IMG/VR virus record: IMGVR_UViG_3300014822_000040
Location: 1 to 26,992 of that record
Direction: 5' to 3' (one strand)
Origin: a virus
Length of the DNA: 26,992 nucleotides
Below are positions 1 through 26,992 of the stretch, piece by piece (position 1 is the stretch's first letter; each line of letters opens with the position of its first letter). Below the pieces are notes generated by a model, which saw nothing but the letters and a program-made list of their open reading frames with translations, was not told the DNA's origin and searched no databases. Made by a program: the position numbers and the translations under genes.

Positions 1-99
1 GGCGGCTGCTCGCCCGCCTTGCAGAAGCTGAGCCGAAGGTACTGGCAGGGGCTGCTGGTATATTCGGTGGGGCTCTGACAGGGGCTCTGACCGCGCTGA
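1..99. repeat. Terminal direct repeat, copy 1 (identical to 26894-26992); contig self-overlap showing a circular or circularly permuted genome
   Basis: Base-by-base comparison shows ggcggctgctcgcccgcc...ctgaccgcgctga at both ends. The match is exactly 99 nt and identity stops at base 100. Confidence 0.95.
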
Positions 100-134
100 C
101 AGCGTGGCTGCAATCCGGAGGAATCCATGGATAG
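1..134 (+). CDS. 3' end of the junction-spanning ORF (continuation of 26323..26992); C-terminal glycine-zipper membrane anchor, stop TAG at 132-134
   Basis: The frame carried over from 26992 (= base 99) reads ...LAGAAGIFGGALTGALTALTAWLQSGGIHG* with no stop until 132-134. Confidence 0.6.
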   Translation, partial: RLLARLAEAEPKVLAGAAGIFGGALTGALTALTAWLQSGGIHG

Positions 135-327
135 GAACCAGGCTTCAAGGGACAGGGAGAAGGCCCTGGCTGCGCTACGTGGCAGCCTTACCACAGCCCG
201 GGTGGAACTGCAGAGGGCAGAGAAGCTGCTTCTGCAGTTTGTCGAGGCAGAATCCAAAGCACCCCCCGTCAGGAAGCCTGACTCCCTTCATCCTTGGTTC
301 CCAGCAACACGCCCGAGAGCTGGCTGA
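127..327 (+). CDS. Hypothetical small protein (66 aa), N-terminal half predicted helical/coiled-coil
   Basis: GGAGGA at 117-122 lies 4 nt upstream of ATG 127. The start overlaps the end of the preceding ORF, suggesting coupling. The alternative frame 104..409 is Arg/Pro/Ser-rich and looks less protein-like. Confidence 0.45.
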   Translation: MDRNQASRDREKALAALRGSLTTARVELQRAEKLLLQFVEAESKAPPVRKPDSLHPWFPATRPRAG

Positions 328-4342: not shown

Positions 4343-4343
4343 C

Positions 4344-9725: not shown

Positions 9726-10628
9726 ATGGAAAACGTAGAAGCGCAGAGCCCGGAGGCAGCCCACGAGGAAGGTGGAGGTGTCCCGTCCGCTGCCACTGGA
9801 AACAACCTCGCCATTCAGCAGGCCCTTGCTGCCGCGAAGGCAGAGGTGGCAGGGAAGACCGCCCCCCCGAGCAAGCCTACGATTGAGGCGCTCGGGGAGG
9901 TAGGGGACCCCGTGCTGGAAGGCGAAGGGAACCACCAGGGCCTGTCCTGGCAGCAGACTCTGGCCGAGCTGCCGGAGCCTGCGAAGAAGCTGCTCGCCAA
10001 CATGCGCGCTGACTACACGCGCAAGACCCAGGCCCTTGCGGAAGAGCGCAGGAAGTACGAGCAGGCGCTAACCCAGGCGCAGGCTCAGACCGAGGGGCTC
10101 CTGTCGTCGGACTTCATGAAGTCACTCAGGGAAGCTCCTTCCGGTGATGACCAGGCCCCGCCTACCGTGGACCCCTTCGACCCCTCTTCGATCCAGAAGG
10201 CGATCGACTGGCACGTCAACCAGAGGGTCAAGGCTCAGATGCAGGAGCTCCTGAGCCCCGTGGAGAAGGCGCAGGAGCTGTACAAGAACCAGCAGGCTGT
10301 TTTACGCTTCAAGGCCGAGAACCCTGACATCGACCGCAACTCCCCTCACTTCGACAAGGAGCTGACCATCGCCGTCGCGAAGAAGCTGAAGGAGACCCCG
10401 GGTCTCCGGCTCGCGGACGCCTACTGGATCGTCAAGGGCCAGAGGCTCCAGGCCCGGCAGGCCGAAGCCGATGCCGAGATGCAGCGGTACAGGGACGAAG
10501 CGAAGCGCGCGGGACTCAAGATTGGTGGTGCCCGGAGAGCCGGGGCAGAGCCCGAAGTTCCTGACTACGTCATGAGGAAGGGCGCGGCTGCGATCTACGC
10601 GTACCTCAAGCAGAAGAAGAAGGCTTGA
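9726..10628 (+). CDS. Probable scaffolding protein (300 aa)
   Basis: AAAGGAG lies upstream of the ATG. The sequence is helical, rich in Ala, Glu, Gln and Lys, and partly low-complexity. It sits directly upstream of the major capsid gene. Confidence 0.55.
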   Translation: MENVEAQSPEAAHEEGGGVPSAATGNNLAIQQALAAAKAEVAGKTAPPSKPTIEALGEVGDPVLEGEGNHQGLSWQQTLAELPEPAKKLLANMRADYTRKTQALAEERRKYEQALTQAQAQTEGLLSSDFMKSLREAPSGDDQAPPTVDPFDPSSIQKAIDWHVNQRVKAQMQELLSPVEKAQELYKNQQAVLRFKAENPDIDRNSPHFDKELTIAVAKKLKETPGLRLADAYWIVKGQRLQARQAEADAEMQRYRDEAKRAGLKIGGARRAGAEPEVPDYVMRKGAAAIYAYLKQKKKA

Positions 10629-10734: not shown

Positions 10735-11829
10735 ATGGCTACCATCAGCCCTGATGTCGCCTCCTCAACCCTCCGCCGGCTGGTCCCTCGGGCCGTCGAT
10801 CAGATCTTTATGGGCACCCCCCTCCTCCACCACATGACCGGTGGCAAGGTCGGCAGCGAAGGGGAGGGCGGCAAGAAGAACCGTGCGGTCGATGTGGTGG
10901 AGCTGGTCAGCGGCGGCAAGCAGGTGGACGTGGACGTGGTCGTCCGCGAGCACAGCAACATCACGCAGTACAGCAACGGCTACGAGAACACCAACCAGAC
11001 CGTCCGCGACGTGAGCGAGACGGCGGTCTACAACTGGTGCGACTACTCCGGGCTCGTGGCTCTCTCCAAGAAGGACGAGCTGTCCAACAAGGGTGAGGCT
11101 GCGCAGATCAAGATCCTGGAGAAGCGTATGAAGCGGGTGATGAGCCAGCTCAAGCGCGAGTATGAGAAGGCCAGCGTGGCAGGCCTCTCCACGATCTTGA
11201 GCGATCTCAACAGCCTGTACGGCCTGAACAGCGCGACCGGCTTCCTGGAGGAAGGGACCTACGGCACCGGCCAGAGCAACACCGTCGGTGGTCTGAGCAA
11301 GGCTGCCACCGCGTTCGGTGGGGCCTCGAACCCCTTCAACAACCAGTCGAAGTCCCACGACCTCAGCGGCACCGTGGACATCGACGAGGACATGACGGAC
11401 CTCTACCAGGACTGCCAGGACTACAGCCCTGACGGCTCGGTCCCGACCCTGGGGCTCTGCACGAAGGAAGCCTTCAAGGCGTACAAGGCGAGGCTGTTCC
11501 CCCAGGAGCGGTACGTCAACCCCAACGACAACACCATCTTCAATGCTGGTCGGCTGGAGCTGGCATTCGGCCTTGCAGGCATCCGTCGCAGCGTGGACCT
11601 GGACACTCTGTACTCCAGCATCACCACCAGCGGGCAGTTCCGTCCTCTGATGTACTTCATCAACGGGGAGTGGCTGAAGCCCTTCTTCGACGAGGATGCC
11701 TTCTTCGAGCTGATGGACTTCCAGAAGGTGTCGGGCAAGCTGGTGATGAGCGCCGACATCATCGTCCGCGTGCAGAACGTCGCTGAGCACCTGGGTAGCC
11801 AGGGCGTCCTCTACGACACCGTCCCGTAA
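10735..11829 (+). CDS. Major capsid protein (364 aa), HK97-fold type
   Basis: It follows the scaffold gene and precedes the decoration gene. The size fits, there is a long spine-helix-like segment (AAQIKILEKRMKRVMSQLKREYEKA), and the protein is Gly/Asn/Ser-rich. It follows a 106-nt intergenic leader. Confidence 0.8.
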   Translation: MATISPDVASSTLRRLVPRAVDQIFMGTPLLHHMTGGKVGSEGEGGKKNRAVDVVELVSGGKQVDVDVVVREHSNITQYSNGYENTNQTVRDVSETAVYNWCDYSGLVALSKKDELSNKGEAAQIKILEKRMKRVMSQLKREYEKASVAGLSTILSDLNSLYGLNSATGFLEEGTYGTGQSNTVGGLSKAATAFGGASNPFNNQSKSHDLSGTVDIDEDMTDLYQDCQDYSPDGSVPTLGLCTKEAFKAYKARLFPQERYVNPNDNTIFNAGRLELAFGLAGIRRSVDLDTLYSSITTSGQFRPLMYFINGEWLKPFFDEDAFFELMDFQKVSGKLVMSADIIVRVQNVAEHLGSQGVLYDTVP

Positions 11830-11856: not shown

Positions 11857-12285
11857 ATGTCTGACATGATCTACCAGAGCCTGGCTACCAGTGACAACCC
11901 CCTTGGCCTGGAGGACCGGCAGCACGTCGTCACCTACAAGGCAGGGGGCGCTATCTCCGCTGGGGACGCGCTCATTTTCGACATCAGCGAGCCCATCGCA
12001 GCCAACCGGATGCGGGTCGTGGTGGCGCAGACCGTCCAGGGCACCGAGGCTCTGTTCGCCGGAATCGCCCTCTCGGACGCCGCCAGCGGGGAGCTGGTGG
12101 ATGTGGCTCTCGGCTACGTCGAGGCGGTCTCCGCCCACACCGACATCGACGCCGGCGACCCCCTGTACTTCCACACCACTGGCGGGATGGTGGCGCAGGG
12201 GCCCATTGGCACGCACATGATCATCGGTGTGGCCCTGACGGACGACTCAGGTGGCCTCTGCTCTGCGTACTTCTACCGGCGGTAG
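11857..12285 (+). CDS. Head decoration / capsid cement protein, DUF2190-like beta-barrel (142 aa)
   Basis: It lies immediately downstream of the capsid gene. The pattern AGGAISAGDALIF...FAGIALSDAASGELVDVALGYVE...AGDPLYFHTTGGMV...IIGVAL matches the DUF2190 consensus as I remember it. Confidence 0.55.
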   Translation: MSDMIYQSLATSDNPLGLEDRQHVVTYKAGGAISAGDALIFDISEPIAANRMRVVVAQTVQGTEALFAGIALSDAASGELVDVALGYVEAVSAHTDIDAGDPLYFHTTGGMVAQGPIGTHMIIGVALTDDSGGLCSAYFYRR

Positions 12286-12376: not shown

Positions 12377-13657
12377 ATGAACCTGCAAGACCTTAGAAGC
12401 GGGATCAGTTCCCTCACCAAGTACAACCCGGACATCGACGAGGATCGAGTTGAGGTGGATGCCATCCTCAACTCGATCCTCGTTGAGCTTGGCGTTGAGC
12501 AGGAGTGGAGGTTCGCCCAACGCACCCGGAAGGTCAACGTCAAGGCGGACCAGGTTTTCACCGGAGTCACGCTGGTCCTCTCCCAGAACAGCATCACCCT
12601 GCCCGGGACGACGGACGGTAACTCTGAGGGCATGATCTGCGAGATCCGGGGGTCGAACGGGAACGACGGAGAGTACGAGATCGTCAGCAGGGCCAGCTCC
12701 ACGGAGATCTACGTCAAGGGCTTGGACGGGTCTACCCCGTCCTGGTCCGCTGCTACGGACGTGACCGTCACGATCAAGCACCGCTACGTGATCATGCCGG
12801 AGGATTGCGCTGAGGTCCTCGGTTTGGAGATACGGTCCTACAACGACACCAGGGGGAAGTTCTCCCCGATCACCCGTAGCGAGGATGAGGACTGGCAGCT
12901 CGACCTTGACGCCACGGGGACTCCGCAGGGCTGGGTCCCAGCAGAGGACAGGTTCGTACCTCCCCCGGTCACTGCCCCTACCCTCTCCATCAACAACTCG
13001 GGCGTGACCCATCCTGTCCCGACGACGGGCACCTACTACGTATGCTACACCTACGTCTGGAAGGACATCGAGAGTGGACCCTCCCCTGTTGCAGAGATCT
13101 ACGCGACCTCCGCCACGGAGGAGATCACAGTCTCTGGCATCCAGGACACGGGGACCGGCAGCGGTATTCGCAAGAAGATCTACGTCAAGGTTCCCGGCTA
13201 CCGCGCCTTCTACGCCTCAGACAACAGCGTCATTGACGACGACAGCACCAGCCTCGGGGGACCCATCATCATCCCAGGTACATGGCCTGTGGGCCAGAGC
13301 AGGTTGCACGAGGGCGGGGGGAACTGGAAGGCCGTTAGGCTTTACCCACGCCAGGACGAGGACTTGCAGCTCAGCGTTCGCTACCTGCACCGGCCGCGTC
13401 TTCTGATCGAGGACACGGATATCCCGGAGCTACCTCCGACGAACCACCGGCTGCTGCTCTTCCGGGCTGTGGAGGAGTGCCTGAACCGGCACGAGAGCCC
13501 CGAGCTGGCTGCGGTCTGGGGTCGGAAGGCAGACGCTCAGAAGGATAAGATGCGGCTCCGAGAGCTGAACACCCGGGCAAGGCGCGTCGTGAGAGGCAAC
13601 GCTTTCGAGGACAGCTCTCCTGACCCCTTCCGCACGATCACCTACGAGACCCCCTGA
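12377..13657 (+). CDS. Head-tail adaptor, T7 gp11 (tail tubular protein A)-like ends with a large central insertion (426 aa)
   Basis: The N-terminal DAILNSILVELGVEQEWRFAQ resembles the gp11 pattern (ILNKINRQIQSRGWTF). It lies directly upstream of the nozzle-like gene. It is about twice the length of T7 gp11. Confidence 0.55.
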   Translation: MNLQDLRSGISSLTKYNPDIDEDRVEVDAILNSILVELGVEQEWRFAQRTRKVNVKADQVFTGVTLVLSQNSITLPGTTDGNSEGMICEIRGSNGNDGEYEIVSRASSTEIYVKGLDGSTPSWSAATDVTVTIKHRYVIMPEDCAEVLGLEIRSYNDTRGKFSPITRSEDEDWQLDLDATGTPQGWVPAEDRFVPPPVTAPTLSINNSGVTHPVPTTGTYYVCYTYVWKDIESGPSPVAEIYATSATEEITVSGIQDTGTGSGIRKKIYVKVPGYRAFYASDNSVIDDDSTSLGGPIIIPGTWPVGQSRLHEGGGNWKAVRLYPRQDEDLQLSVRYLHRPRLLIEDTDIPELPPTNHRLLLFRAVEECLNRHESPELAAVWGRKADAQKDKMRLRELNTRARRVVRGNAFEDSSPDPFRTITYETP

Positions 13658-15750
13658 TGAAGGTCGCTGCCTCCCAGAGGTTCTCCCCCCTCGGGGGGTT
13701 GGACGAGAGAGCCGCCCACAGCCCCTCTGCCTTCGAGGTGTTGGAGAACGTGACCATCGACCCTGCTACGAAGGGTTGGTCTACCAAGCTGGGCTTCGAG
13801 AAGTTCTTTCCCGGCTCCACCCTCTATGCGCCGTTCAACTCGGACACGCGCATCCTGTCGATGTACGAGTGGAGCACTCACGGGGGGAAGGTCCGCTTCC
13901 TGTTGTACGAGGTGGACACTGGCAACGGCGCAGAGCTTCGGTACGTCAAAGGCAACCCTGGAGCGACGGAGACGTTGCAGACCGGGAGACACGTCCCTAC
14001 TCCGACCGAGGCTGGAACACAGTACATCCCCTTTGGTCGCTTCCTGATCATCGTCAACGGCCACGACCGGCCCAAGAAGTTCGACGGTCAGCGCTTGACA
14101 GACCTGGGGTGGTCCACAGTTCCCAGCGCCCCGCGCCCGTGGGGAGTAGACACGGATAACTCGAAGGGGCCTGACGAGCAGAACTTCGCTGTGACCTTCG
14201 GGTCGGACGGGCTGGGGCTGGGGTTCGCGAAGGGGGGCTCCGTCAACCGATACCGCTGGAAGGTGGCCTTCATCAGCGAGACCGGTAGCGTAAGCCCCAT
14301 CTCTGCGGCCACCGCGAACCTCAAGTGGACGACGGAACCCTCTTCCACCGGAGGGTTCTACGAGCAGAGGCGGCAGTGTGTCTACCTGGAGAACATGCCT
14401 ACGGGACCTGACGGGACGGTAGGGAGGATCCTCTACAGGACCAAGAACCTCGGGGACACGGACGATCTGAGCGAGGAGCTGTTCTACTACGAGCAGACCA
14501 TCTGGAACAACAACGAAAAGAGCGCAGTGAGCTGGGTACCGGACTCCAGGCTGGGGGCACTCGCCCCGGACGACGGGGACTCCGTGCCCCTGCCTACCCG
14601 TCAGCCATCGGGTGGCGTCGTCCACATGCAGACGCTCTTCCTGATTGGCGGCCCCTCCGATCCTACCAGCCTGTACTACTCCTCCCCCCTGCACCCTGAC
14701 GCCTTCCCCGCCCTCAACGTCTTTCAGGTGGGCCACCGGCGGGGTGGGGACATCAAGGCCGTGGTGCCCTACTACAACAACGTCCTGGTCTTCCGAGAGC
14801 ACAGCATCGAGGTCGTGAGAGGAGACCCCCAGTCAGGGTTCCGCATCACGCCCTTCGAGGAAGGGATTGGGTGCTCAAGCCCCTCCGCGATCGTCACGGT
14901 TCCGGGGGTCGGCGTAGTGTTTCCCGCTTCATCCGGGGGCATCTACGCCGTCTCCGGGGGCTTCGACGGTGGAGCAAGCCTGGTCACCCGGCGCATTTCT
15001 GATCCGATTCTGAGGAGCGTCAGAAGGTGGAGCCTCGGGGCGATGGCGAGGGCCACCGCGACGTACTCGGAGAAGTGGAGGGAGTATCATCTGTATGTCC
15101 CGGCCGATGGTTCGGAGATCCCCAGCCTCGGGCACGTCCTTCACCTGGATGCCCCGGGAGGACCTGCGTGGTCTACACGGGTGGGCTGGCCTGTATCTGT
15201 CTGCCTGACGGATCACCAGGGGGACATTCTCTTCGGTCACTCTGTAGGCAACGACGGCAGCGGTAACTTCGCTGCCGGGATCTTCGTCATCAGCAGGAAG
15301 AGGGTAGGAGGCTGGGGGTCATCAGGGGCCAACGCTGTCGAGGGTGACCCCCCCACCTCGCGGTTCCGTACCGTGTTCAACGACTTCGGAGACCCCATCC
15401 GACACAAGACGGTGAAGTACCTGTACCTGGAGTGTCTCGCGCTGGGGTCCACATCCGTCCAGGTCAGCACCCACGTCGGCGAGTCTTCTTCGGCTGCGAC
15501 GACCAGCAAGACCGTGAAGCTACAGAGGCCTGAGTTTCCCGACGAACACGTCCTCGGCACCACGGCAGTCTATGGCACTACGAGGTGGAAGCGTACTCCG
15601 GTTATGCACCTCGGCTTCGACATCCCGGATAACGGGGCTACTGTATGGGCCTGGTCCTTGGAGACCGACAAGGACTTCGTGCTGATGGGCTACACAGTAG
15701 AGCTGCAGGTCAGCGACCAGCGTAGAAGGTCTGGGAGGGGTACGGCATGA
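13657..15750 (+). CDS. Tail nozzle, T7 gp12 (tail tubular protein B)-like (697 aa)
   Basis: The N-terminal FSPLGGLDERAAHSPSAFEVLENVTIDPATKGWSTKLGF resembles the gp12 N-terminus (NLKGGISQQPD...QVNGWSSETEGL). The size, the beta-rich repetitive character and the position all fit. Confidence 0.6.
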   Translation: MKVAASQRFSPLGGLDERAAHSPSAFEVLENVTIDPATKGWSTKLGFEKFFPGSTLYAPFNSDTRILSMYEWSTHGGKVRFLLYEVDTGNGAELRYVKGNPGATETLQTGRHVPTPTEAGTQYIPFGRFLIIVNGHDRPKKFDGQRLTDLGWSTVPSAPRPWGVDTDNSKGPDEQNFAVTFGSDGLGLGFAKGGSVNRYRWKVAFISETGSVSPISAATANLKWTTEPSSTGGFYEQRRQCVYLENMPTGPDGTVGRILYRTKNLGDTDDLSEELFYYEQTIWNNNEKSAVSWVPDSRLGALAPDDGDSVPLPTRQPSGGVVHMQTLFLIGGPSDPTSLYYSSPLHPDAFPALNVFQVGHRRGGDIKAVVPYYNNVLVFREHSIEVVRGDPQSGFRITPFEEGIGCSSPSAIVTVPGVGVVFPASSGGIYAVSGGFDGGASLVTRRISDPILRSVRRWSLGAMARATATYSEKWREYHLYVPADGSEIPSLGHVLHLDAPGGPAWSTRVGWPVSVCLTDHQGDILFGHSVGNDGSGNFAAGIFVISRKRVGGWGSSGANAVEGDPPTSRFRTVFNDFGDPIRHKTVKYLYLECLALGSTSVQVSTHVGESSSAATTSKTVKLQRPEFPDEHVLGTTAVYGTTRWKRTPVMHLGFDIPDNGATVWAWSLETDKDFVLMGYTVELQVSDQRRRSGRGTA

Positions 15751-16364: not shown

Positions 16365-17180
16365 ATGTCTCGTATCGACCCTACGACGTATACCCCAGCG
16401 GAGGAGAGCCTCATCTCCGCTACCGGTCTCACCTCGAAGTTCTCCGAGGTGGAAGTCGCTACCGCTGCCCTCGACGACGAGAACGTATCCGCCGAGGGGA
16501 TCGACGCGCGGAACCTGGACAGCCCGTTCGTCCTCTCCGCACTGAGGATGAACAACAACGCGGATGGCAGCCCTCACACCTACAGCTCCGTAGACGCAGC
16601 GCAGAGCTACGAGCTGACGCACGGCAACGGGATGGACTTCGCCTTCCCAGGGGGCTTGTCCCTGGAATCCGGGGACATCCTGCGCCTCCACTACCAGGTC
16701 TACATGGCGAGCCACAACGAGGCCCTGATCAATAACGCGGGGGCTCGGACCTTGTTCGTGGTCTACCCCATGTGGGACTTGACCAGCACCTCGCTGGTCA
16801 ACATGGAAGTGCTCCCGGAGCACACCGACATTCACTCATCGAGCAGCGTGCCCCTCAACACGCCCTACCAGCTTGAGGACTTTGACTCCTCCGGCGCCTA
16901 CAAGACCCACGGGTACGCTGTCTACCCTACCTACGGGTATCTCAGCGGCTCCCTCATCGAGACGCGCAGAGCACCCCACGGCGTCTGGAACTACAGGGTC
17001 CCCAGCGCCCTCACGCTGTACGGGTTCCGATTCTACTTCAGGGGTCCCTTCCTCTACCAGCACTACAGCAGCGGAGGAAGCGATTTCCGGGCATGGGTGT
17101 ATGCGACGAGCTATGCCATGAACGTGACCTTCGAGCGGGGTCAGGCCAGCTTCCTTGCTCTGAGAGGAGGTGCTACTTGA
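16365..17180 (+). CDS. Tail-associated beta-sandwich protein, set member 2 (271 aa)
   Basis: It starts 3 nt after the previous gene. The N-terminal segment is LTSKFSEVEVATAALDDENVSAEGIDARNL, and the body is beta-rich. Confidence 0.6.
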   Translation: MSRIDPTTYTPAEESLISATGLTSKFSEVEVATAALDDENVSAEGIDARNLDSPFVLSALRMNNNADGSPHTYSSVDAAQSYELTHGNGMDFAFPGGLSLESGDILRLHYQVYMASHNEALINNAGARTLFVVYPMWDLTSTSLVNMEVLPEHTDIHSSSSVPLNTPYQLEDFDSSGAYKTHGYAVYPTYGYLSGSLIETRRAPHGVWNYRVPSALTLYGFRFYFRGPFLYQHYSSGGSDFRAWVYATSYAMNVTFERGQASFLALRGGAT

Positions 17181-17818
17181 GCTACACGAACCCGAGCACC
17201 TTCACGTCCGGGGCCACGATCAACCCCGCTGATCTGCAGAACGCTCTGGACGAGCTGCAGAAGTACATCAATGGGGGCATCTCCGCAACGGACTTCTCCG
17301 AGACAGGCTGGGCAGAGGCCCGGCACATCGTCCGGGGGGTCTATGAAGCGCTCCCCCAGAGACATCGCTTCGTCACCGGGATGGTCGGGGGGCGCATCTT
17401 CACCGTGGACATGGAGCAGTTCTCTCTGCTGGGCAACGGCCCCACAAACAGGGCAGGAGGGGCTACCAAGACCCTCAAGGCTTGGCCGAACACCGGGTAC
17501 GACTTCTACCTCGCGCAGGAGTCATCTGTCCTGATCAGCTTCACAGCTTGCCCTATCGCAGTACCTGACGGGGGGGTCGCCGCAGCATCTAACCTTGCGT
17601 CTTGCACACTGTTCCTCGACGGGTCCCGCCTTCCCTATACCCGGCTGCTGACTCAGGCCGATGAAATCCCGGAGAGGGATAGGCACACCTGGAGCAGCTA
17701 CCACCTGGAGCTCGCGCTGTCAGAGGGCTGGCACAGTATCAGCCCGAGAGGGTACGCTGATGGGGCGATGAACTTCCTCACGGCATGGGGAATCTCTGTA
17801 GAAGCCTGGAGTGTATGA
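17177..17818 (+). CDS. Tail-associated beta-sandwich protein, set member 3 (213 aa), probable TTG start
   Basis: GAGAGGAGG at 17162-17170 lies 6 nt before TTG 17177, which overlaps the upstream TGA (cTTGA). The resulting N-terminus (M)SYTNPSTFTSGATINPADLQNALDELQKYINGGIS parallels members 1 and 2. The track start at 17093 adds a Cys/Arg-rich overlap. Confidence 0.55.
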   Translation: MSYTNPSTFTSGATINPADLQNALDELQKYINGGISATDFSETGWAEARHIVRGVYEALPQRHRFVTGMVGGRIFTVDMEQFSLLGNGPTNRAGGATKTLKAWPNTGYDFYLAQESSVLISFTACPIAVPDGGVAAASNLASCTLFLDGSRLPYTRLLTQADEIPERDRHTWSSYHLELALSEGWHSISPRGYADGAMNFLTAWGISVEAWSV

Positions 17819-18501
17819 TGGCATCGAAGAAGACCACCTCTGCCTTGCAGGGCGCTACCCTCGGGGGGACCGTCGGGTCTGCCTTCGGTCCCGTTGGCAC
17901 CATTGTTGGAGGTGGGCTCGGGGCCGGAATCGGGCTGATCTTCGGGGACAGAACCTCTGAGACCGAGAAGCTGCGGAAGGAGCAGCTCGAAGAGCTACTC
18001 CGTAGGCAGGAGGAGGGAGCCCTCGGCCTAACGGACGAGGAGCGGAGGATGATGGAGGCGAGCCTTGTGGACCCCATTCTTGCCGCTCGCAGGGAGCAGC
18101 AGCAGGCCAACATGGCTGCCCTCGCTACCCAGGACCTGGGGGCAGGGATGGCCTACAGGCAGCAGCAGGGGGATGTTCAGAGAGCAGCGCAGGATACTCA
18201 GGCCGCAAGGGCCGCGATCGAGAAGGCCCACCTGGATGAGCAACGGAGAGAGGAGAGGCAGATCCAGGACATGCTCAAGGACCAGCAGGCCCGTGAGGAC
18301 CAGCAGCGAGCTGCTCAGCTCGAAGCCGCGACTTCCCTGGCCGGAACCCTGGCCGCTGCCGGGTCTGATCTCATGACCCAGGCCGAGCAGCAGCAGATTC
18401 AGGAAGACCTCCTCAACGCCTCCGGGCTGGGAGACTTCCCCGATGCAGACTTCGACGAGCTGAACGAGCTGTTCGGCTTCGAGGCCCTTGGGGTCGTATA
18501 G
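17815..18501 (+). CDS. Internal virion / ejection protein candidate (gp14-like by position), N-terminal glycine-zipper TM plus Gln/Glu-rich coiled coil (228 aa)
   Basis: ATGATG at 17815-17820 overlaps the upstream stop, so the start is 17815 or 17818. The TM segment is GATLGGTVGSAFGPVGTIVGGGLGAGIGLIFG, followed by a long helical, charged, Gln-rich region. Confidence 0.55.
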   Translation: MMASKKTTSALQGATLGGTVGSAFGPVGTIVGGGLGAGIGLIFGDRTSETEKLRKEQLEELLRRQEEGALGLTDEERRMMEASLVDPILAARREQQQANMAALATQDLGAGMAYRQQQGDVQRAAQDTQAARAAIEKAHLDEQRREERQIQDMLKDQQAREDQQRAAQLEAATSLAGTLAAAGSDLMTQAEQQQIQEDLLNASGLGDFPDADFDELNELFGFEALGVV

Positions 18502-18509
18502 GAGCGATC

Positions 18510-20321
18510 ATGCCCACTCGCGGAGAGACCTACTACAGCGCCTTCCTGGAGAGGCAGCAGGCCAAGATCGACCGGGCTCTGGCCCAGGCCGAGCAGGATC
18601 TTCTGCTGGAACAGCGGACGGAGACGCAGCACAGGAAGGTTCTTCTCGATCTGATCAAAGACCTGGATGATCAGATCACCGCGCTGGAGAAGCTGAACCA
18701 GGGCGACGACCGAAGCTTCGACAACTACATCAAGGCCGCAACCGCGCTGGACCGCAGCGAGAGGGGGCGGGAGAGGACCGCTGCAGAGTTCGGGACGGCT
18801 GAGGGGGCCCCACCCGTGCAGCTCCCGGGTCCTGTCGTTGCCAAGATCGAAGCTGTGATGACGAAGTACAACTCCGCGCGCAGCAAGTACCAGCCCGGGG
18901 CCGTCTCCGGGGTGATGGTGGGGCGGGGTTCTCCGGGCTCCGCGCTCGCGGCTGAGCTGGACAACCACCCCACGCGTATTCGGGAGCTGGCGGCCGCAGA
19001 GCTGATGAGAAGGATGCAGAACGCGAGCGGCGGCAACCTTGTCCCCTCCGCGCTGGACCCAAGGACCACCTCTCTCTACGTCGATGCGGTCAAGACGATC
19101 GCTGCCGCGCTGCATGTGGACCCGATGCGCGTGGACCCGGCGAACCTGGAAGAAGCAGCCGCTCAGGCCGCCCAGGTCGCTCCTGCCGCCCCCTCGACGC
19201 GAGAGGGTAGGGAGGCCTTGAGGAAGGGCCTCGCGCGAGCTGAGGAGGACCTGGGAGGTACCGGCCTTACGGAAGAGGAGAAGCTCCTTGCGAGCTACCT
19301 CTCCAACGACGGGGTCATTTCGGAGGAGGAGTACAAGGACTTCGCCCGCCGTACCCTGACGAGCCCCATCACCCAGGAGCAGCTACTGGAAGCTCAGAAG
19401 AAGTATGGTCTGAAGTCTCTCGCGGACGCATCCAGGAAGCTCACCCAGGAGAGGCAGGCCAAGGCCAGGGAGCAGCTCAACACGCTGATGCAGGAGAGCG
19501 TGGACAATCTCTTCATCCGTAGAGCAGCGGAGCAGGGTTCCCTTCGGACTCGGAGGGACGAAGCCCTCAAGGCTCTGAGCCAGACCGGAAGGGGGGAGGC
19601 CCCTACTCGCGCAGAGAGGGCGGGGAAGTTACTCGCTGAGAACAGAGCACTGAGGCCGGGAGAGGTGCTGCGAGGGGGCGCTCGCCGTATTGCGGAGAGG
19701 GGCCGGGCCATGGCCCATGGGCGCCCCCCGGAGACGGCCGCTGAGAGGAGTGCTCGGATAGCTAAGAGCATGACTTCTGGACAGAAGCGGCTGATGAGGG
19801 CAGGGGTCCAGGCGCAGAAGATGCTCAAGGAGCACAAGGGCATCCCTGACCCGGTCGATCCCCTCATGGAGTTCCAGGCGGACTTCCTCTTTCGGGCTAT
19901 GCAGTCCGGGTCCACGCCACCTCGGGACATCCTCAGCGTGGCGGATGAGGTTGCCAAGAAGGAAGGAGCCCGCCCCGAGGACCAGGCTGTGTACACGGAG
20001 CAGGTTCTGACCCGGGCTCTCGCCAAGCAGCTTGAAGCTCTCCGCGCGAAGAAGCCCGTTCACGAGGTTGTGACGCCAGGACCGGAAGGCACCGTCCGAG
20101 GGGAGGGAGCGGAGATCGAGAAGGTCCTCCCCGAGAAGGACGCCGAGGACATGGGCAAGAGCTACGAGGAGCTGATCGAGGAAGGCAAGGACATCCTGGA
20201 CACGGCCCTGGAGGAGCAGAAGGAGAAGGAGGGGGAGCTTGGAGTGACCCATGAGGAGCCCTCCTCTCCGTGGGCGGTTAGCCACAAGAAGCGGAAGCGA
20301 CTCTTCCCCTGGCGGAGGTAG
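18510..20321 (+). CDS. Internal virion / ejection protein candidate (gp15-like by position), highly charged and helical (603 aa)
   Basis: AGGAG lies upstream of the ATG. Its size and place between the gp14-like and giant proteins fit. I saw no enzymatic motif. Confidence 0.5.
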   Translation: MPTRGETYYSAFLERQQAKIDRALAQAEQDLLLEQRTETQHRKVLLDLIKDLDDQITALEKLNQGDDRSFDNYIKAATALDRSERGRERTAAEFGTAEGAPPVQLPGPVVAKIEAVMTKYNSARSKYQPGAVSGVMVGRGSPGSALAAELDNHPTRIRELAAAELMRRMQNASGGNLVPSALDPRTTSLYVDAVKTIAAALHVDPMRVDPANLEEAAAQAAQVAPAAPSTREGREALRKGLARAEEDLGGTGLTEEEKLLASYLSNDGVISEEEYKDFARRTLTSPITQEQLLEAQKKYGLKSLADASRKLTQERQAKAREQLNTLMQESVDNLFIRRAAEQGSLRTRRDEALKALSQTGRGEAPTRAERAGKLLAENRALRPGEVLRGGARRIAERGRAMAHGRPPETAAERSARIAKSMTSGQKRLMRAGVQAQKMLKEHKGIPDPVDPLMEFQADFLFRAMQSGSTPPRDILSVADEVAKKEGARPEDQAVYTEQVLTRALAKQLEALRAKKPVHEVVTPGPEGTVRGEGAEIEKVLPEKDAEDMGKSYEELIEEGKDILDTALEEQKEKEGELGVTHEEPSSPWAVSHKKRKRLFPWRR

Positions 20322-20323
20322 GT

Positions 20324-23300
20324 ATGCCCAACCCCGACGGTACTCTGACTTGGGAAGAGCGCAAGGCGCTCCTCCAGGGGCTCGACCTGACAGAGCCCAC
20401 GGAGGAAGAGAAGCAGACTGCGGGCGGCGGTCCGGCCCTCTACGACCCTGCCGACGAAGTGGAGCCCGCTGCTGACGCGACGAAGACCGCACTCTACGAG
20501 GGGAAGCAGTCCGCTGGAGTCCCGTATAGAGACGCCCAGCTACAGGCCGCGCAGGAAGTACAGGAGATCATCTCTGCTCCCAGACCTGTCCAGTCCTTCG
20601 ACATCAACAGGATGGAGGGGGCATCCCGGCGCGGCGCGGTCGAGGAGAAGGAATCCGGAGTGGGGGCGATCCTCGAAGCCCTCAAGCCCCAGGTGATCTC
20701 CGAAGCTCCCGAGAAGGCGGAGACCCCGGACCGTGTGACCGACCTGCGTACCTCTGTCATGGCGGCGGCACAGAAGGCGGTGCCCATCGGCACTCCTGAT
20801 AGGCCTTCCGCTGTCAAGGCGGAGCTGCTCTCGCAGATCGAGAAGGCCAGGCAGGAGCAGATCTCGCGCCTCATGACCCCTGGCGAAGACCAGGTTCCCC
20901 TCATTGAGAAGATCTACGCAGAAAACGTCGGGGCACTTCCCGCCGACCCGCTTGAGCGAAGGAAGGAGCTGAACAACATGATGGAGGCCATCGTAGGGGG
21001 CACCCTGCGAGCCGCCTTCCCCACCATAGACATCGCCCAAGCTCAGCTTTCCGAGGACACCCCCATCTCCGTCCGTGCGGTTCAGGCTGCCCTCTCGTCC
21101 GAAGGGGAAGCGGGAGAAACCGTAGAGACCCCTATCGCCGCTGCGATGAGGGACCTTGGCGGAATCGCCCGTATCGCTGTTGACCCTGTGTGGAAGGGCC
21201 TGACCTACGAAGTGGATGAGCAGGGCAACCCTGTGGACCCGGAGGACATCAACTACAAGCTGGCCCAGGCCCAGGACCGATTCCTGCGAGGTAAGTCCAA
21301 AGGCGCAGCGGACTACCTTGCGGGGGCTGTGGGAGCTCGGTTCCCTGCCTTCACGCTGGCTAAGCAGTCCTCCAGACCCTCACAGGGCGTACTGGCCAAG
21401 GACATCGCTCTCTCGATTGCCAGGGGGCAGAGCCTCGGTGACGACCTGATGGAGCTCCCCGCCATGACCATGCTGGCAGAGCAGGCGGGGTACCCCGAGG
21501 CTCCGTTCTGGATAGGCATGGCAGGGGAGATGCTCCTCCCGGCGGTCCCCGGCCTGGGTACAGCAACGAAGACCGCGAGCCGGGCAGCGAACAAGCTCAA
21601 GCTCTCCAAGGTCATGGAAGATTTGAGCGAGGAAGCAGTCACCAGGGCCGTGGCGTCAGGAGGGAGAGTGGACCCCTCTACGCCTCTCGGCCGCATTGTA
21701 GGCGAGACCAGCAAGCAGCTTCGTCTTCTGCAGAGCAAGGAACTGTACCACAACGTGGACAACGTCAAGTCCTGGCTCCGGACTGCGTCCGGGCAGGAGC
21801 TAATCGGTCCCTTGATCAAGAAGGCGGCGAGCCTGGCTGAGGTAGAGGGGCTCACCTCCCTTGCCAAGACGCTGAGAGAGGCGAGGACCGAAGACGAGCT
21901 GACTGACGCCCTCATCGCGATGTCGAAGGAGCCTTTCTACATAGACGCGGTTGACGCTACTCTGCTCCAGTCCGCAATCAAGAGAGCAAGGGAGGAGGCC
22001 GCTAACGCAGCACCTCAAGACCTGATCTTCATCACGCCGACCACCGTCGTCCGCGAGAGCGCATGGGACGAGGTGGGGGACGAGGTCATGTCGGCAGCGT
22101 CCGACATCCTCAAGGTAAGCGATACCGGGCAGGGCAAGTCCTTCAAGCTGGAGAACCCTGCCCAGGTGAAAGAGGTGCTGGACCTGACACTGGGTCCCGC
22201 CAAGATAGCGCAGTCTCCCTTCTGGACGGAGGTCTCCCGGGCTCTGGAAGAGGGAAGGCCCCTGAACATCAAGCAGTACAGGTCTGTCCACGAGGAGGTG
22301 CTGGGAGCTCTCACCCGTCAGGCGACCCGGGACTCCGCGAAGCTCCGTTATACCGCTGAGGCATACAGGGCGGCGTCGGTTCCAGTGGCCCGAAGGAGCC
22401 CTGTAGGGAGGACCCTCAAGGTCTCAGCCGACCTCCTCTCCGATACTGCCTTAGGGAAAGGGGTTAGCAAGGTCCTGAAGAAGCTGGGCAAGAAGCGAGT
22501 CACCGGCTTTGAGCCGGACCCACGGGCACCCCTCCCTGTCAGGAGATGGGCAGAGGACATGAGGAACAGGCTGCTCCGGCTGGACGACGAGCTGAAGGCT
22601 GAGATCGCTGGCGCGAAAAACAGGCCTGAGAAGTTCAAGGAGATGCTCCTTGAGGAGCAGCGGCTGCAGACGGAAGCTGACATCGCCTCTGGGAGGTTCG
22701 CGCCCGAGCGCGCTCTGGAAGAGGTCGTCAGTATCTTCTTCTCTGGGGTCAAGGTCTCCGACAGGGAAATGCAGAGGGCACTTCCCATGCTCCCCCTCTC
22801 CCCCGAGGTCGTGGGCACCAGCCCCTCGGCATGGGCCGTGACCCCTACAAACGTAGCTCATGTGATCGAGACCTTGAGGGGGGCAAACAAGTCGCTCAGG
22901 GGGAAGGGCCTCGGGGGGCAGCTATCCGGGGACGACTTGTTCGCAGCAATGACGACCTGGCTGCTGCAGAGCAGGGCGAAGAGGGAGATCTCCAAGGCAG
23001 CCCGGGAACTGGAGAGCATGTACCCTGAGCTGACTGCCAGGATGACGCCGAAGGAGCTGGCAGCGTTCAGACACGCCTTGGACCACGTAGCCACTTCCGG
23101 CTACTACTTCGCATCGGGGTCCGTCCTTCTGGGGTACTCCGATTTCAGGGCTACACAGAAGGCCCTTGGGTTCGCTGAGAGCCTCGGCCTTACCGACTGG
23201 CCCCGTATTCCAGGCGAGTTCTACCCTACCAAGTTCTCTGCCCACCCTGAGCTGATCCACATCGCTGACAATATCCGGGTCACTGCGGACCCGGAGCTGC

Positions 23301-24820
23301 AGGCCCTCATCGACGCGGTGAAGTCCAGCAACTCACTGGCGGTGAACCTGGAGGCGCTGAAGCTGAGAAGTAAGACCGGGGCGGACTTCGTCTGGGGCCA
23401 GATCGGCAACATGTTCCGCTGGATCAACAGGACCGCAGTAGGGGGGCTGCTCGGAGGGTTCCCCCTGCCCAACGGCAGGTTCCTCGGAGCGAACATTCTC
23501 ACAGCTCCTCTGATCATGGCGGTGACCGTCCCGGGCTTCGTCCTCCGGTCGCTGCCCTCCTCTGTACGGAACCTCGCGGAAATGATCCCGAAGGCCCTCC
23601 CTCGGTCGGGGGAGCTGTTCACAGACCCGGCGGGTAAGGTCTGGACAGCGGAGATGCTGGAGGATGCGGTCAAGCGGAACAACATCCAATCTTCCCAGGC
23701 GAAGTTCGAGTTCCGCGACCGGGTGATCGAGGATATCCGAAGGACCGCGAGGATGACGGCGGACGGGTTTGAATCGGGTACGGTTAGGCAGGCGCTACGC
23801 TGGCTCCGGCCGGACAACATGAACATCTGGAACATGGTCGCAGAGGCCAGCGACAATGCCTTCCGCAAGGCCGTGTTCATGGAGGCGCTTAGAGTCGGGC
23901 TGACTGAGCCTGAAGCGGCTGATCTGGCAAGAAAGTCCCTTCTCGACTATGGGGCGATCCCCAGCACGGAGAAGGACACGGTTGCCCGGTACATGATGTT
24001 CTACGCCTTCCAGAGGCAGATGTTCATGGACACGCTGGGGGCTATGGTTCGCCCGGACGCCCTGGACAACCTACGCAAGATAGCGGTCCTCACCAAAGAG
24101 CAGCAGGAGTTCGAGGGGACGTGGTCCCTTGTGCCAGAGTACGCCCAGACCCGGATGTGGGCTGAACTGAAGGAGACCTACGACGGAGTCATGACGGGCC
24201 ACTTCGGTCCATCTGCTCCGCCCTTGGACTCTCTTAAGACCTTGGTTGACGCCCTCTATGCAGTCTATGACCCCTCCTCGTTCTCCCTGTCAGAGACAGC
24301 GGAGAGGATGAACGAGGCCCTGTTCGCGCTACCCTTGTTCACCCTCGTCCGTGAGCTTGGTCAGAGCCGAGGGGAGCTGGAAAGCCAGGGGCTATTCCCG
24401 GAGAGAGACGCCATGGCCCTCCAGGGGATCGGCCTGTGGCCTGAAGCAGTTCGCTTCTTCGACCTTGAGCCCGTCCCCCTCTCCCAGCGCAGGGCGGGGC
24501 GAGCTGCCTTCGTGGTCCCTGGAGTCGAGGGTCTGCAGCAGTGGAGGTTTGGTTCGGAGGAAGGCAGGAACCGCTACCTCATGACCCTGACGGCCTCCCT
24601 GGTGATGGGTCTTCAGAGGAATCTGAGGGACTACGGGCAGGTTGTCGCAAGGATGACGGGCACGGATGTGGACAAGATCGGCTACAAGCGGCTGGACGAC
24701 GGGAGCATCGTAGCCTTCTTGATCGGAGCGGACACGGTCATTCCCGTCCCATCGAAACTACAGCAGCAGGAGCGGCTGACCCAGGAGATCATCAGGGAGC
24801 TGAACCAGCTCAAGAGGTAG
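20324..24820 (+). CDS. Giant internal virion / DNA-ejection protein candidate (gp16-like by size and position; 1498 aa)
   Basis: It is the largest ORF and starts 2 nt after the previous gene. I saw no lytic transglycosylase, peptidase or polymerase signature. Confidence 0.5.
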   Translation: MPNPDGTLTWEERKALLQGLDLTEPTEEEKQTAGGGPALYDPADEVEPAADATKTALYEGKQSAGVPYRDAQLQAAQEVQEIISAPRPVQSFDINRMEGASRRGAVEEKESGVGAILEALKPQVISEAPEKAETPDRVTDLRTSVMAAAQKAVPIGTPDRPSAVKAELLSQIEKARQEQISRLMTPGEDQVPLIEKIYAENVGALPADPLERRKELNNMMEAIVGGTLRAAFPTIDIAQAQLSEDTPISVRAVQAALSSEGEAGETVETPIAAAMRDLGGIARIAVDPVWKGLTYEVDEQGNPVDPEDINYKLAQAQDRFLRGKSKGAADYLAGAVGARFPAFTLAKQSSRPSQGVLAKDIALSIARGQSLGDDLMELPAMTMLAEQAGYPEAPFWIGMAGEMLLPAVPGLGTATKTASRAANKLKLSKVMEDLSEEAVTRAVASGGRVDPSTPLGRIVGETSKQLRLLQSKELYHNVDNVKSWLRTASGQELIGPLIKKAASLAEVEGLTSLAKTLREARTEDELTDALIAMSKEPFYIDAVDATLLQSAIKRAREEAANAAPQDLIFITPTTVVRESAWDEVGDEVMSAASDILKVSDTGQGKSFKLENPAQVKEVLDLTLGPAKIAQSPFWTEVSRALEEGRPLNIKQYRSVHEEVLGALTRQATRDSAKLRYTAEAYRAASVPVARRSPVGRTLKVSADLLSDTALGKGVSKVLKKLGKKRVTGFEPDPRAPLPVRRWAEDMRNRLLRLDDELKAEIAGAKNRPEKFKEMLLEEQRLQTEADIASGRFAPERALEEVVSIFFSGVKVSDREMQRALPMLPLSPEVVGTSPSAWAVTPTNVAHVIETLRGANKSLRGKGLGGQLSGDDLFAAMTTWLLQSRAKREISKAARELESMYPELTARMTPKELAAFRHALDHVATSGYYFASGSVLLGYSDFRATQKALGFAESLGLTDWPRIPGEFYPTKFSAHPELIHIADNIRVTADPELQALIDAVKSSNSLAVNLEALKLRSKTGADFVWGQIGNMFRWINRTAVGGLLGGFPLPNGRFLGANILTAPLIMAVTVPGFVLRSLPSSVRNLAEMIPKALPRSGELFTDPAGKVWTAEMLEDAVKRNNIQSSQAKFEFRDRVIEDIRRTARMTADGFESGTVRQALRWLRPDNMNIWNMVAEASDNAFRKAVFMEALRVGLTEPEAADLARKSLLDYGAIPSTEKDTVARYMMFYAFQRQMFMDTLGAMVRPDALDNLRKIAVLTKEQQEFEGTWSLVPEYAQTRMWAELKETYDGVMTGHFGPSAPPLDSLKTLVDALYAVYDPSSFSLSETAERMNEALFALPLFTLVRELGQSRGELESQGLFPERDAMALQGIGLWPEAVRFFDLEPVPLSQRRAGRAAFVVPGVEGLQQWRFGSEEGRNRYLMTLTASLVMGLQRNLRDYGQVVARMTGTDVDKIGYKRLDDGSIVAFLIGADTVIPVPSKLQQQERLTQEIIRELNQLKR

Positions 24821-25872: not shown

Positions 25873-26001
25873 ATGGACACCTTCAAGAGCGCCCTCAAGT
25901 ACATCGTCCCTCTCATCGTAGGCATCTTCACGGGCATGGGCATCGACCTCGGGGTCTCCCCTACCGGCGAGTGCCCTCCTTGCGAAGAGGTCCCGGAGTA
26001 G
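25873..26001 (+). CDS. Small membrane protein, 42 aa (MDTFKSALKYIVPLIVGIFTGMGIDLGVSPTGECPPCEEVPE)
   Basis: It is below the ORF-track cutoff. AGGAG at 25862-25866 lies 6 nt before the ATG. It has one hydrophobic helix and a CPPC motif in an acidic tail. Confidence 0.45.
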   Translation: MDTFKSALKYIVPLIVGIFTGMGIDLGVSPTGECPPCEEVPE

Positions 26002-26057
26002 GGCCTGCTGGTATCAGGGGGCGAGAACAGAATCCAATGCAACCGTGTAGAGGCAAC

Positions 26058-26276
26058 ATGAGGACGGGTGGACAGAGCAGTAGGCTGAGGGGCAAGAGGA
26101 AGCTCATGGCCTACGGTATGTGCCTCGGCTACTTTCTGGCTCTCGCAGCTCTCTCCCGTGCCGGGGTCTCTGACGGGGTTCTAACCAACCTGGGGCTCTA
26201 CGGGCTTCTTTCTCTCGGCGCCTACTCCGGAGCGAACCTTGGGGTAGCCTATGCCAACTCAAAGGGCAGAGAATGA
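26058..26276 (+). CDS. Holin-like small membrane protein with two predicted TM helices (72 aa from ATG 26058, or 56 aa from ATG 26106)
   Basis: The TM segments are MAYGMCLGYFLALAALSRAG and LGLYGLLSLGAYSGANLGVAY. AAGAGGAAG precedes ATG 26106. The track start GTG 25971 overlaps the 42-aa ORF and adds an Arg/Gly-rich extension. Confidence 0.5.
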   Translation: MRTGGQSSRLRGKRKLMAYGMCLGYFLALAALSRAGVSDGVLTNLGLYGLLSLGAYSGANLGVAYANSKGRE

Positions 26277-26322
26277 AGACGCGCGGAGGGTCAGTTCGTC
26301 ACGCAGCCTATAGGGGGGAGTG

Positions 26323-26992
26323 ATGCCTTGGCCAGAAGAGACCCAGGATACATGTAAGTGGATTCGCGCCCTGCTGATCGACCACGACAAGAGCAGAGCG
26401 GGGCTCATCGCCCGGATGCTCAGGCTCTCTTCTGTTGCCGTTGACCATGAAGAAGACCTGCCATCAGCGCTGGCGCGGGTGAGAGAGCGAGAACCGGAAG
26501 ACCGCTATCAAGTGATCCTGGTGGACCTGGGGCACCTCTCTCGAACCTGGGAGTCCTTGCTGCAGGCTATCTCTGAAGCTGACCCTGCGGCTGTCCTGGT
26601 TGGGCTGTCCGACGTGTCGGGAGTAGTGAACATGCTTGGTGCCACGTCCGGAGAGAGGTACGGCGTGATCGTCTTACCGAGCTGTCCCGAGGAGGGGGCT
26701 GCGGAGACATGGGGGAGAGTCGTCGGTGCGATGCTGGTAGGAGAGGTGTCGAGGACCGCAAGCCCTGCCAGGAGGCTGGAGGCGCTACAGCGGCAAACGC
26801 TCGCGCTTGTCCGAGCCCTCGACCCTGTACTGAGGGACGCGCTGGCTGCAAGCCGAACCCCCGCTCCTGTCCCCCTGCCGGCGTCAGGGATTGGGCGGCT
26901 GCTCGCCCGCCTTGCAGAAGCTGAGCCGAAGGTACTGGCAGGGGCTGCTGGTATATTCGGTGGGGCTCTGACAGGGGCTCTGACCGCGCTGA
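26323..26992 (+). CDS. Junction-spanning ORF, 5' part (234 aa in total, ends at base 134 of the circle): CheY-receiver-like (beta-alpha)5 domain, helical/Pro-rich linker, C-terminal glycine-zipper anchor
   Basis: I translated it by hand and found no stop from ATG 26323 (or GTG 26320) to the window end. An in-frame TAG lies at 26311-26313. The sequence is IRALLIDHDKSRAGLIARMLRL..SVAVDHEEDLPSALARVRE..YQVILVDLGHLSRTWESLLQAISEADPAAVLVGLSD..YGVIVLPS. It is absent from the ORF track because no stop falls inside the window. Confidence 0.6.
   Translation, partial: MPWPEETQDTCKWIRALLIDHDKSRAGLIARMLRLSSVAVDHEEDLPSALARVREREPEDRYQVILVDLGHLSRTWESLLQAISEADPAAVLVGLSDVSGVVNMLGATSGERYGVIVLPSCPEEGAAETWGRVVGAMLVGEVSRTASPARRLEALQRQTLALVRALDPVLRDALAASRTPAPVPLPASGIGRLLARLAEAEPKVLAGAAGIFGGALTGALTAL
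26894..26992. repeat. Terminal direct repeat, copy 2 (identical to 1-99)
   Basis: It matches bases 1-99 exactly over 99 nt. Confidence 0.95.

Follow-up and report, generated by a model that had tools for sequence, protein, structure and literature searches.

Receiver and pseudo-receiver (PsR) domains belong to the most abundant classes of signalling module, and the way in which bacterial PsRs work is largely unknown (PMC12632262). True receivers conserve five active-site residues at about 100%, namely an acidic pair (DD, whose two members are here called DD1 and DD2), the phospho-acceptor aspartate (D), a threonine or serine (T) and a lysine (K), and a PsR is defined as a receiver fold without at least one of these five residues (PMC12632262). 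Among PsRs, about 80% have a non-acidic DD2 (Bourret et al. 2025, PMC12632262). In the present work we analyzed the phage genome IMGVR_UViG_3300014822_000040 (positions 1 to 26,992 of this IMG/VR virus record; the whole 26,992-nt stretch is referred to as the window) and identified a gene, split between the two ends of the window, that encodes a 234-residue protein with a predicted N-terminal PsR and a single hydrophobic segment at the C-terminus. A phage PsR carrying a tail anchor, as this protein appears to be, is a new architecture with respect to the literature searched.

The two ends of the window are identical over exactly 99 nt, bases 1-99 being the same as bases 26894-26992. This terminal duplicate (1..99, no strand assigned), recognized by sequence identity and by homologues that run colinearly across it, is a circularization or terminal-redundancy overlap, and the unique genome measures 26,893 bp once it has been removed. 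Translation from an ATG at 26323 across the overlap yields 234 codons followed by a TAG stop at 132-134. The 5' 670 of the 705 nt of this coding sequence (234 codons and stop) are found at 26323..26992 on the plus strand and, since bases 1-99 repeat 26894-26992, the reading frame resumes at base 100, its last 35 nt (100..134, plus strand) encoding the end of the hydrophobic segment, the residues QSGGIHG and the stop. Because it runs off the end of the window, this open reading frame (ORF) is missing from the mechanically generated ORF list. An earlier note made on this DNA had nevertheless called it from ATG 26323 to base 134, and the overlap and the translation bear out its position, its length of 234 aa and its absence from the ORF track, while all the motifs quoted there (IRALLIDHD, YQVILVDL, AAVLVGLS, YGVIVLPS, TPAPVPLPASG and VLAGAAGIFGGALTGALTALTAWL) were found in the translation. 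A G-rich, Shine-Dalgarno-like run, GGGGGGAG, lies just 5' of the ATG. Upstream, an in-frame TAG at 26311-26313 leaves GTG 26320 as the sole alternative start, so that no N-terminal extension past this codon is possible and a signal peptide could not be accommodated.

The junction-spanning ORF is a genuine gene and not a chance open frame. An exhaustive phmmer search of 1.84 billion representative proteins identified a family of four members, comprising the window protein and the homologues P0002, P0003 and P0004, which are encoded on independent contigs, are 228-235 aa long and align end to end with the window protein at about 43-49% identity. Codon differences to these three homologues amount to 145-148 at the third, 97-109 at the first and 69-91 at the second codon position, and 51-67 identical residues per homologue are encoded by synonymous codons. 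This concentration of substitutions at the third position, together with the synonymous changes, points to purifying selection acting on the frame that starts at 26323. The earlier note had allowed that another frame might be favoured by coding potential, or that the overlap might be a misassembly leaving the ORF chimeric or truncated. The codon-position pattern favours the claimed frame, and the homologues, none of which lies across a contig junction, are of matching length and colinear over the overlap, with an alignment that is unbroken through the residues encoded before, within and after it. The junction is further supported by the small gene that follows it (127-327), which has a positional counterpart in all three other loci. 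The gene is thus split only by the point at which the circular assembly was opened.

Outside these four proteins the family appears to be very rare. No further members emerged when 5.8 billion protein clusters were searched with the single sequence through a word index and also with a profile, no related loci were found with the family profile in IMG/VR, GTDB genomes or JGI metagenome contigs, and tblastn searches against the INPHARED phages gave no relatives. Scans of the window protein and its homologues against Pfam, PHROGs and NCBIfam showed no family match; weak matches to phrog_731 and SseD were dismissed as noise.

Several comparisons support the view that the N-terminal ~130 residues adopt a CheY-like (beta-alpha)5 receiver fold. 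In the AlphaFold2 (AF2) model, the block-mean predicted local distance difference test score (pLDDT) is 63-89 over residues 11-140, and the receiver-like domain (residues 14-143; 26362..26751, plus strand) is made up of five successive strand/helix units (E14-19/H23-34, E38-43/H46-55, E64-68/H76-86, E91-96/H99-113 and E115-119/H126-143). When this model was compared with the PDB using Foldseek, the best 50 matches were all response-regulator receivers. They include PmrA, with a target-normalized template modelling score (TMt) of 0.77-0.78 and a root-mean-square deviation of 2.5-2.6 Å, as well as PorX, NtrC1, DctD, PleD, FixJ and atypical regulators such as RitR. The best matches in BFVD were to receiver domains from phages and giant viruses and spanned the N-terminal domain only. 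A profile built from the four family sequences gave seven sub-threshold matches among all PDB sequences (E 0.2-2.2), every one a receiver and all in one consistent register. Finally, hhalign against five canonical receivers (CheY, Spo0F, PhoB, NtrC and OmpR) returned an E-value of 9.6e-5 and a probability of 59%, placing D20, H21 and D68 of the window protein on D12, D13 and D57 of CheY. The CheY-like register that had been drawn by eye in the earlier note, with D20 and D68 at the positions of CheY D12 and D57, is therefore shared by AF2, Foldseek, the PDB profile and hhalign, while its alternative of a degenerate Amidase_3 finds neither a Pfam match nor a place among the PDB fold matches, all of which are receivers. 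By the gathering score of the family hidden Markov model, neither the window protein nor its homologues belong to PF00072. We nonetheless regard the structural description of the protein as a whole, from receiver-like domain to hydrophobic tail, as very probably correct.

The active site of this domain has been largely lost. Across the four members, the DD1 position reads D/D/E/D (D20 in the window protein), whereas DD2, the metal-binding second acidic residue, is H/P/P/G (H21 in the window protein). The phospho-acceptor position is D/D/S/D, with D68 in the window protein and a serine in P0003. At the Thr/Ser site HMMER places an invariant glycine, G94, and the residue at the end of the strand, S96, which had previously been matched to this site, belongs to a position that varies as S/I/T/A. 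The lysine of strand beta5 is replaced by L/L/L/V followed by an invariant proline, P119, in agreement with the earlier reading of L118-P119 as a lost lysine with its proline kept, and the residue at K-3 is a valine and not an aromatic residue. The family alignment accordingly contains neither the complete acidic pair (DD1 and DD2) nor the conserved Thr/Ser nor the lysine of a receiver. No Pfam-A family, whether PF00072 or one of the minor PsR families, was matched, and recognition of the domain came through structure prediction and weak profile matches. Given the predicted fold, and with DD2, T and K, three of the five active-site residues, gone in all members and the acceptor replaced by serine in one, the N-terminal domain is by definition a PsR, as judged from the aligned residues, and gating by phosphorylation is unlikely. 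Of the earlier description as a "receiver or pseudo-receiver" the second half can thus be kept, while a functional phospho-acceptor pocket, and with it the suggestion of a phosphorylation-gated regulator, finds no support. The domain most likely acts as a phosphorylation-independent interaction or oligomerization module.

The C-terminal half of the protein begins, a short gap beyond alpha5, with a long helix (residues 148-178, PARRLEALQRQTLALVRALDPVLRDALAAS; 26764..26856, plus strand) that is seen in both the AF2 model and the family alignment. The segment 144-178 shows 63-66% identity in two of the three homologues, compared with 38-40% for the receiver part. This helix is followed by a Pro-rich hinge, TPAPVPLPAS (residues 179-188), an amphipathic helix, GIGRLLARLAEA (residues 189-200), and an invariant P202-K203 pair, which together occupy 26857..26931 on the plus strand and were delineated from the alignment and the hydrophobic moment. 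The TPAPVPLPASGIGRLLARLAEA-PK stretch is the best-conserved part of the protein, with 96% and 76% identity to two homologues, and the amphipathic character of GIGRLLARLAEAE is reflected in a hydrophobic moment of 0.57 and a mean hydrophobicity of 0.06. The earlier note had described a Pro-rich linker followed by a glycine-zipper transmembrane segment at the extreme C-terminus, and the translation contains such a linker and, at that end, a single hydrophobic segment rich in Gly, Ala and Thr. Hydrophobicity, composition and alignment define the segment, a putative tail anchor, as residues 204-227, VLAGAAGIFGGALTGALTALTAWL (39..110, plus strand, in the copy at the start of the window, which equals 26932-26992 plus 100-110). 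It is the sole hydrophobic stretch in each of the four members, with 15 of 24 residues being Gly, Ala, Ser or Thr in the window protein (12-16 of 24 across the family), five invariant residues (G207, G214, A222, T224 and A225), a mean Kyte-Doolittle hydropathy of 1.4-2.3 across the family and a summed Hessa insertion free energy (dG) of -0.7 to +2.3. As there is no signal peptide, the N-terminal domain should stay in the cytoplasm, and with an invariant lysine before the segment and about seven neutral residues after it, the simplest topology would be that of a tail anchor. We infer an N-in orientation, in which the receiver domain is cytoplasmic and about 7 residues are exposed outside.

Conserved neighbours accompany the gene in all four loci (the window, L001, L004 and L005). 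A 64-77-aa ORF overlaps the stop of the family gene in every locus (127-327 in the window, 2480-2674 in L001, 1413-1646 in L004 and 3339-3551 in L005), and its products share an N-terminal (M)DR, a helix of ~40 aa rich in Arg and Glu and a Pro-rich tail that ends in PPPEH and PPSEH in two of the loci. It has been called as a gene in L004 and in the L002 copy of the L001 locus, and is uncalled in L001 and L005. In the window the ORF (127..327, plus strand) encodes 66 aa, its ATG overlapping the stop of the pseudo-receiver gene by 8 nt, and the product starts with MDR and has the Arg/Glu-rich helix and Pro-rich tail but no hydrophobic segment. Since the start of the small ORF overlaps the stop in each locus, the two genes are probably translationally coupled, and the small protein is an obvious candidate partner of the pseudo-receiver. 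Upstream, three of the four loci encode a membrane protein, here called UP, the stop of which overlaps the start of the family gene (1864-2670 in L005, 3-719 in L004 and 1205-1792 in L001). UP consists of one to three N-terminal transmembrane (TM) segments and a conserved domain of ~150 aa with many invariant residues, including the motifs WRRISY, GTTH, MPPR, GEYxDPERP, LPVYSVV and DQRHGAxWERL. Sequence and profile comparisons of UP with Pfam, PHROGs and the PDB gave no match and a homologue search returned only UP itself; a single-sequence AF2 model with a pLDDT of 43 was unusable and was discarded. Scans based on UP brought in just one more locus, L006, from the same phage as L005.

The most informative arrangement was found in L005/L006, where a fibre-like protein, a 72-aa protein and an Amidase_2 endolysin (Pfam PF01510; phrog_1493 at E 3.4e-15) are followed by a 42-aa membrane protein, a 50-aa membrane protein, UP, the family member, the 70-aa overlapping ORF and then a convergent ribbon-helix-helix-like gene. 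In L001 the order is a small membrane protein (577-882), a 90-aa protein with a TM segment and a coiled coil, UP and the family gene, and this module sits upstream of tail and baseplate genes. The first of these proteins is a homologue of a small membrane protein of the window (52% identity over 65 aa). The 90-aa protein (943-1215), with its N-terminal TM segment, coiled coil and C-terminal Cys, is i-spanin-like in outline; no lipoprotein partner was seen beside it. Otherwise the four loci have almost nothing in common, which marks the module as mosaic, as lysis cassettes typically are.

In the window itself, two small hydrophobic proteins are encoded directly upstream of the pseudo-receiver gene, as the earlier note had reported. 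One, the product of a 42-aa ORF (25873..26001, plus strand) whose Shine-Dalgarno site reads GGAG, has a single short hydrophobic segment, IVPLIVGIFTGMGIDLG. The other is a small holin-like membrane protein with one clear TM segment, LMAYGMCLGYFLALAAL, and a second segment that is Gly-rich and weakly hydrophobic (26059..26276, plus strand); it was recognized by its hydrophobicity and by the L001 homologue, and its start may be GTG 25971 or an ATG at 26038, 26059 or 26106.

Taken with the L005 locus, where genes for an Amidase_2 endolysin and for two small membrane proteins precede the family gene and which lends the link to lysis real support, these features lead us to propose, tentatively and as somewhat less than an even chance, that the protein is tethered to the membrane and, independently of phosphorylation, assists or regulates the holin step of lysis. 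Its C-terminal helix, weakly hydrophobic and rich in Gly, Ala and Thr, would anchor it tail-first in the cytoplasmic membrane. The conserved long helix, the amphipathic helix and the anchor would then engage the holin-like protein or the bilayer, while the cytoplasmic pseudo-receiver could supply dimerization or partner binding and, together with the small partner protein, might set or restrain the timing of lysis. A more far-reaching version, which we consider unlikely, is that the module represents an unseen class of lysis-timing device, in which a membrane-tethered sensor of receiver fold, with a tail resembling a signal-anchor-release (SAR) helix and a Pro-rich partner, couples a cytoplasmic cue to holin triggering. 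Candidates for such a cue are a metabolite, a signalling protein of the host and residual phosphorylation of D68.

A number of observations weigh against this proposal. No family match ties any gene of the window cassette to lysis; the small membrane proteins of the window match no holin family in Pfam, PHROGs or NCBIfam, and no endolysin was recognizable by Pfam or PHROGs among the window ORFs tested, as the earlier note had also remarked. An endolysin cassette surrounds the homologue in L005/L006 and not the window gene, and since these two loci are one phage, the adjacency to an endolysin counts as a single case. UP is not present in the window. The tail of the window protein is marginally hydrophobic and the least so of the four (Kyte-Doolittle 1.42, dG +2.25). 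The AF2 model was built on an alignment of four sequences and has low confidence past residue ~145, and no member of the family matches Pfam Response_reg (PF00072) even at E<=10. No relatives, moreover, were found in IMG/VR, GTDB genomes or INPHARED.

The protein might instead have no direct part in lysis. It would then serve as a membrane-anchored factor in host takeover or superinfection exclusion, or as a signalling decoy, and would form an accessory module that closes the late operon. The four loci are otherwise unrelated phages that share little but the module, as is the case for mobile accessory genes, the window has no recognizable endolysin adjoining the gene, and other viruses are known to encode receiver-domain proteins. 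The L001 module, being upstream of tail and baseplate genes, is not at an operon end. Mosaic exchange is, however, equally typical of lysis genes, and the neighbours are consistently small membrane proteins, accompanied by an endolysin in L005. A decoy in particular would have to compete for the phosphoryl groups of host kinases, which the loss of DD2, T and K makes unlikely. We consider a non-lysis function of this kind a minority possibility.

The protein might also be the hole-former itself, that is, a holin or pinholin whose glycine-zipper-like helix of small residues oligomerizes into a membrane lesion, with the receiver-like domain serving in cis as an oligomerization or timing domain. 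The five invariant residues lie on the TM helix (G207, G214, A222, T224 and A225), the tail is rich in Gly, Ala, Ser and Thr and weakly hydrophobic, and the gene occupies a lysis-cassette position. Such a small-residue, weakly hydrophobic composition recalls pinholin and SAR helices. Receiver domains commonly dimerize, and the matches to DctD, NtrC1 and the coiled-coil fusion 3H5I span the receiver together with its helical extension. At 38-50% identity the TM segment is, on the other hand, less conserved than the helix and the amphipathic segment that precede it, and separate small holin-like membrane proteins are encoded in the window, L001 and L005. We know of no holin class that combines a single tail-anchor TM segment with a cytoplasmic domain of 200 aa. 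A hole-forming function therefore seems distinctly unlikely, and a regulator acting on a separate holin remains the reading that we prefer.

A true, phosphorylatable receiver, in which host histidine kinases or acetyl phosphate modify D68 and thereby gate lysis, is disfavoured and appears improbable. D68 does occupy the phospho-acceptor position and D20 that of DD1, and D22 could partly replace the absent second acidic residue. In all four members, however, DD2 (H/P/P/G) and K (L/L/L/V) are substituted and the T site is Gly or not conserved, the acceptor is a serine in P0003, and the five residues concerned are conserved at about 100% in genuine receivers (PMC12632262). No Pfam Response_reg match was obtained at E<=10, and the Pfam and PHROGs scans of the window turned up no kinase gene.

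Even less can be said for a cryptic peptidoglycan hydrolase with a C-terminal TM segment, either of the Enc34/M4Lys type or a degenerate Amidase_3, that would stand in for the endolysin not recognized in the window. Endolysins that carry a TM domain at their C-terminus have been described (PMC8943055, PMC7143992). The fold of the window protein is nevertheless receiver-like, with no hydrolase among its 50 best PDB matches, there is no lysin match in Pfam, PHROGs or NCBIfam, and the invariant residues hold no catalytic constellation of His, Glu and Cys. The L005 relative co-occurs with an Amidase_2 endolysin of its own, and in the predicted topology, tail-anchored and N-in, the domain would not be within reach of the cell wall. 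We accordingly disfavour this reading as highly improbable. A unimolecular spanin was rejected, because the hydrophilic N-terminus cannot be extended upstream and Cys11 is unconserved. That the ORF is an artefact of a false 99-nt join, chimeric or truncated, as might be suspected because a k-mer assembler would leave an overlap of this length, is disfavoured and already essentially refuted by three homologues of equal length on ordinary contigs, which align without interruption through the junction and are followed by the same type of small overlapping ORF.

The window represents the genome of a small podovirus-like phage (26.9 kb, 62% GC). Unless otherwise stated, the following assignments rest on Pfam and PHROGs matches. 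On the plus strand we identified genes for the small terminase (4606-5094), the large terminase (5320-7050), a likely portal (7047-8696, from size and position only, there being no family match), a scaffold-like protein (9726-10628), the major head protein (10735-11829), a cement protein (11857-12285), an SU10-type adaptor (12377-13657) and internal-virion-protein-like proteins (13657-15750 and 17785-18501), and on the minus strand a prim-pol/VapE primase-helicase (689-2905). The pseudo-receiver gene is the last but one in the long rightward late operon, after the virion genes, and its GC content at third codon positions (0.66, against 0.75-0.90 in the virion genes) fits a mosaic accessory gene. 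A 316-aa protein encoded upstream of the small membrane genes gave no informative match. Attempts to infer the host showed a large terminase that is only ~25% identical to known phage terminases, and a tRNA search of the window found none. Scans for promoters, terminators and repeats around the junction-spanning gene were uninformative.

Some further features of the window were observed. Two large late proteins, of 1498 aa (20324-24820, plus strand) and 603 aa (18510-20321), gave no match to Pfam or PHROGs; presumably they serve in ejection, inside the virion or in the tail, and the missing muralytic activity could possibly be hidden in them. The 238-aa product of 17785-18501 shows, at its N-terminus, a sub-cutoff match to the glycine-zipper motif PF13488 (E 2.5e-4) besides its weak PHROG matches to internal virion proteins. 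In the tail-gene region the long same-strand ORFs 16365-17180 and 17093-17818 overlap by 88 nt, which reflects either a misplaced start of the second ORF or an unusual overlap or frameshift. A perfect hairpin rich in G and C, CCCCCTGCC-AGGAGAAG-GGCAGGGGG (2941-2966), is located in the short interval that separates the minus-strand primase-helicase gene from a 115-aa gene upstream of it, and may be a terminator or a regulatory stem-loop. At 4496-4546, inside ORF 4173-4652, three overlapping GCTGGAG-like units with 9-nt spacing specify a short peptide repeat of the (M/V)LE type; the small terminase gene begins shortly downstream.

The general importance of the family may be limited, as there are four members in 5.8 billion protein clusters, all from uncultivated phages, and the function is read from context in essentially one informative relative. 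A phage PsR that combines fold and anchor within a lysis cassette would still offer a compact and genetically tractable case of a PsR, and, should holin timing prove to be under its control, a type of regulator that senses the cytoplasm would join those of phage lysis. The locus also illustrates that linear ORF calling misses genes split at the arbitrary point at which circular viral contigs are opened.

Among described proteins, DctD, NtrC1 and PleD are similar to the window protein in having a long helix close after alpha5, and they are among its best and longest structural matches. They are, however, soluble true phospho-receivers with AAA+ or GGDEF outputs, whereas the window protein is devoid of an output domain and ends in a membrane tail. 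As a proposed non-enzymatic, membrane-tethered modulator of a holin, it would resemble the phage antiholins and lysis regulators T4 RI and RIII, N4 gp62 and lambda S107, a likeness of genomic position only. These share no sequence or fold kinship with it and are not known to carry a receiver fold or a tail anchor. The "Receiver domain" of N4 gp63 is a mere label for a cytoplasmic region, and was set aside as no precedent for the fold. The endolysins of Hafnia phage Enc34 and Salmonella phage BSPM4 (M4Lys) likewise consist of a soluble N-terminal domain and a single C-terminal TM segment. Their N-terminal domain is a muralytic enzyme, while that of the window protein is receiver-like and has no catalytic signature.

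Unimolecular spanins have an N-terminal lipoprotein signal with a lipobox Cys and a C-terminal TM segment. With those of the T1 gp11 type the window protein shares the C-terminal TM segment and the lysis-cassette position. It differs from them in having no lipobox, its sole Cys (C11) being unconserved and without a preceding hydrophobic signal, and in a soluble domain that is predicted to be cytoplasmic.

The closest kinship is with the bacterial PsRs. No tail-anchored PsR, and no description of a phage receiver fold with a tail anchor at a lysis-cassette position, was found in the literature searched. Like the bacterial domains, the window protein has a CheY-like (beta-alpha)5 fold that keeps DD1 and usually D and is without DD2, T and K. 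Unlike them, it is undetected by PF00072 or any other Pfam-A model scanned and is encoded by a phage, and in place of a DNA-binding or enzymatic output it carries a helix, a Pro hinge, an amphipathic helix and a putative membrane anchor.

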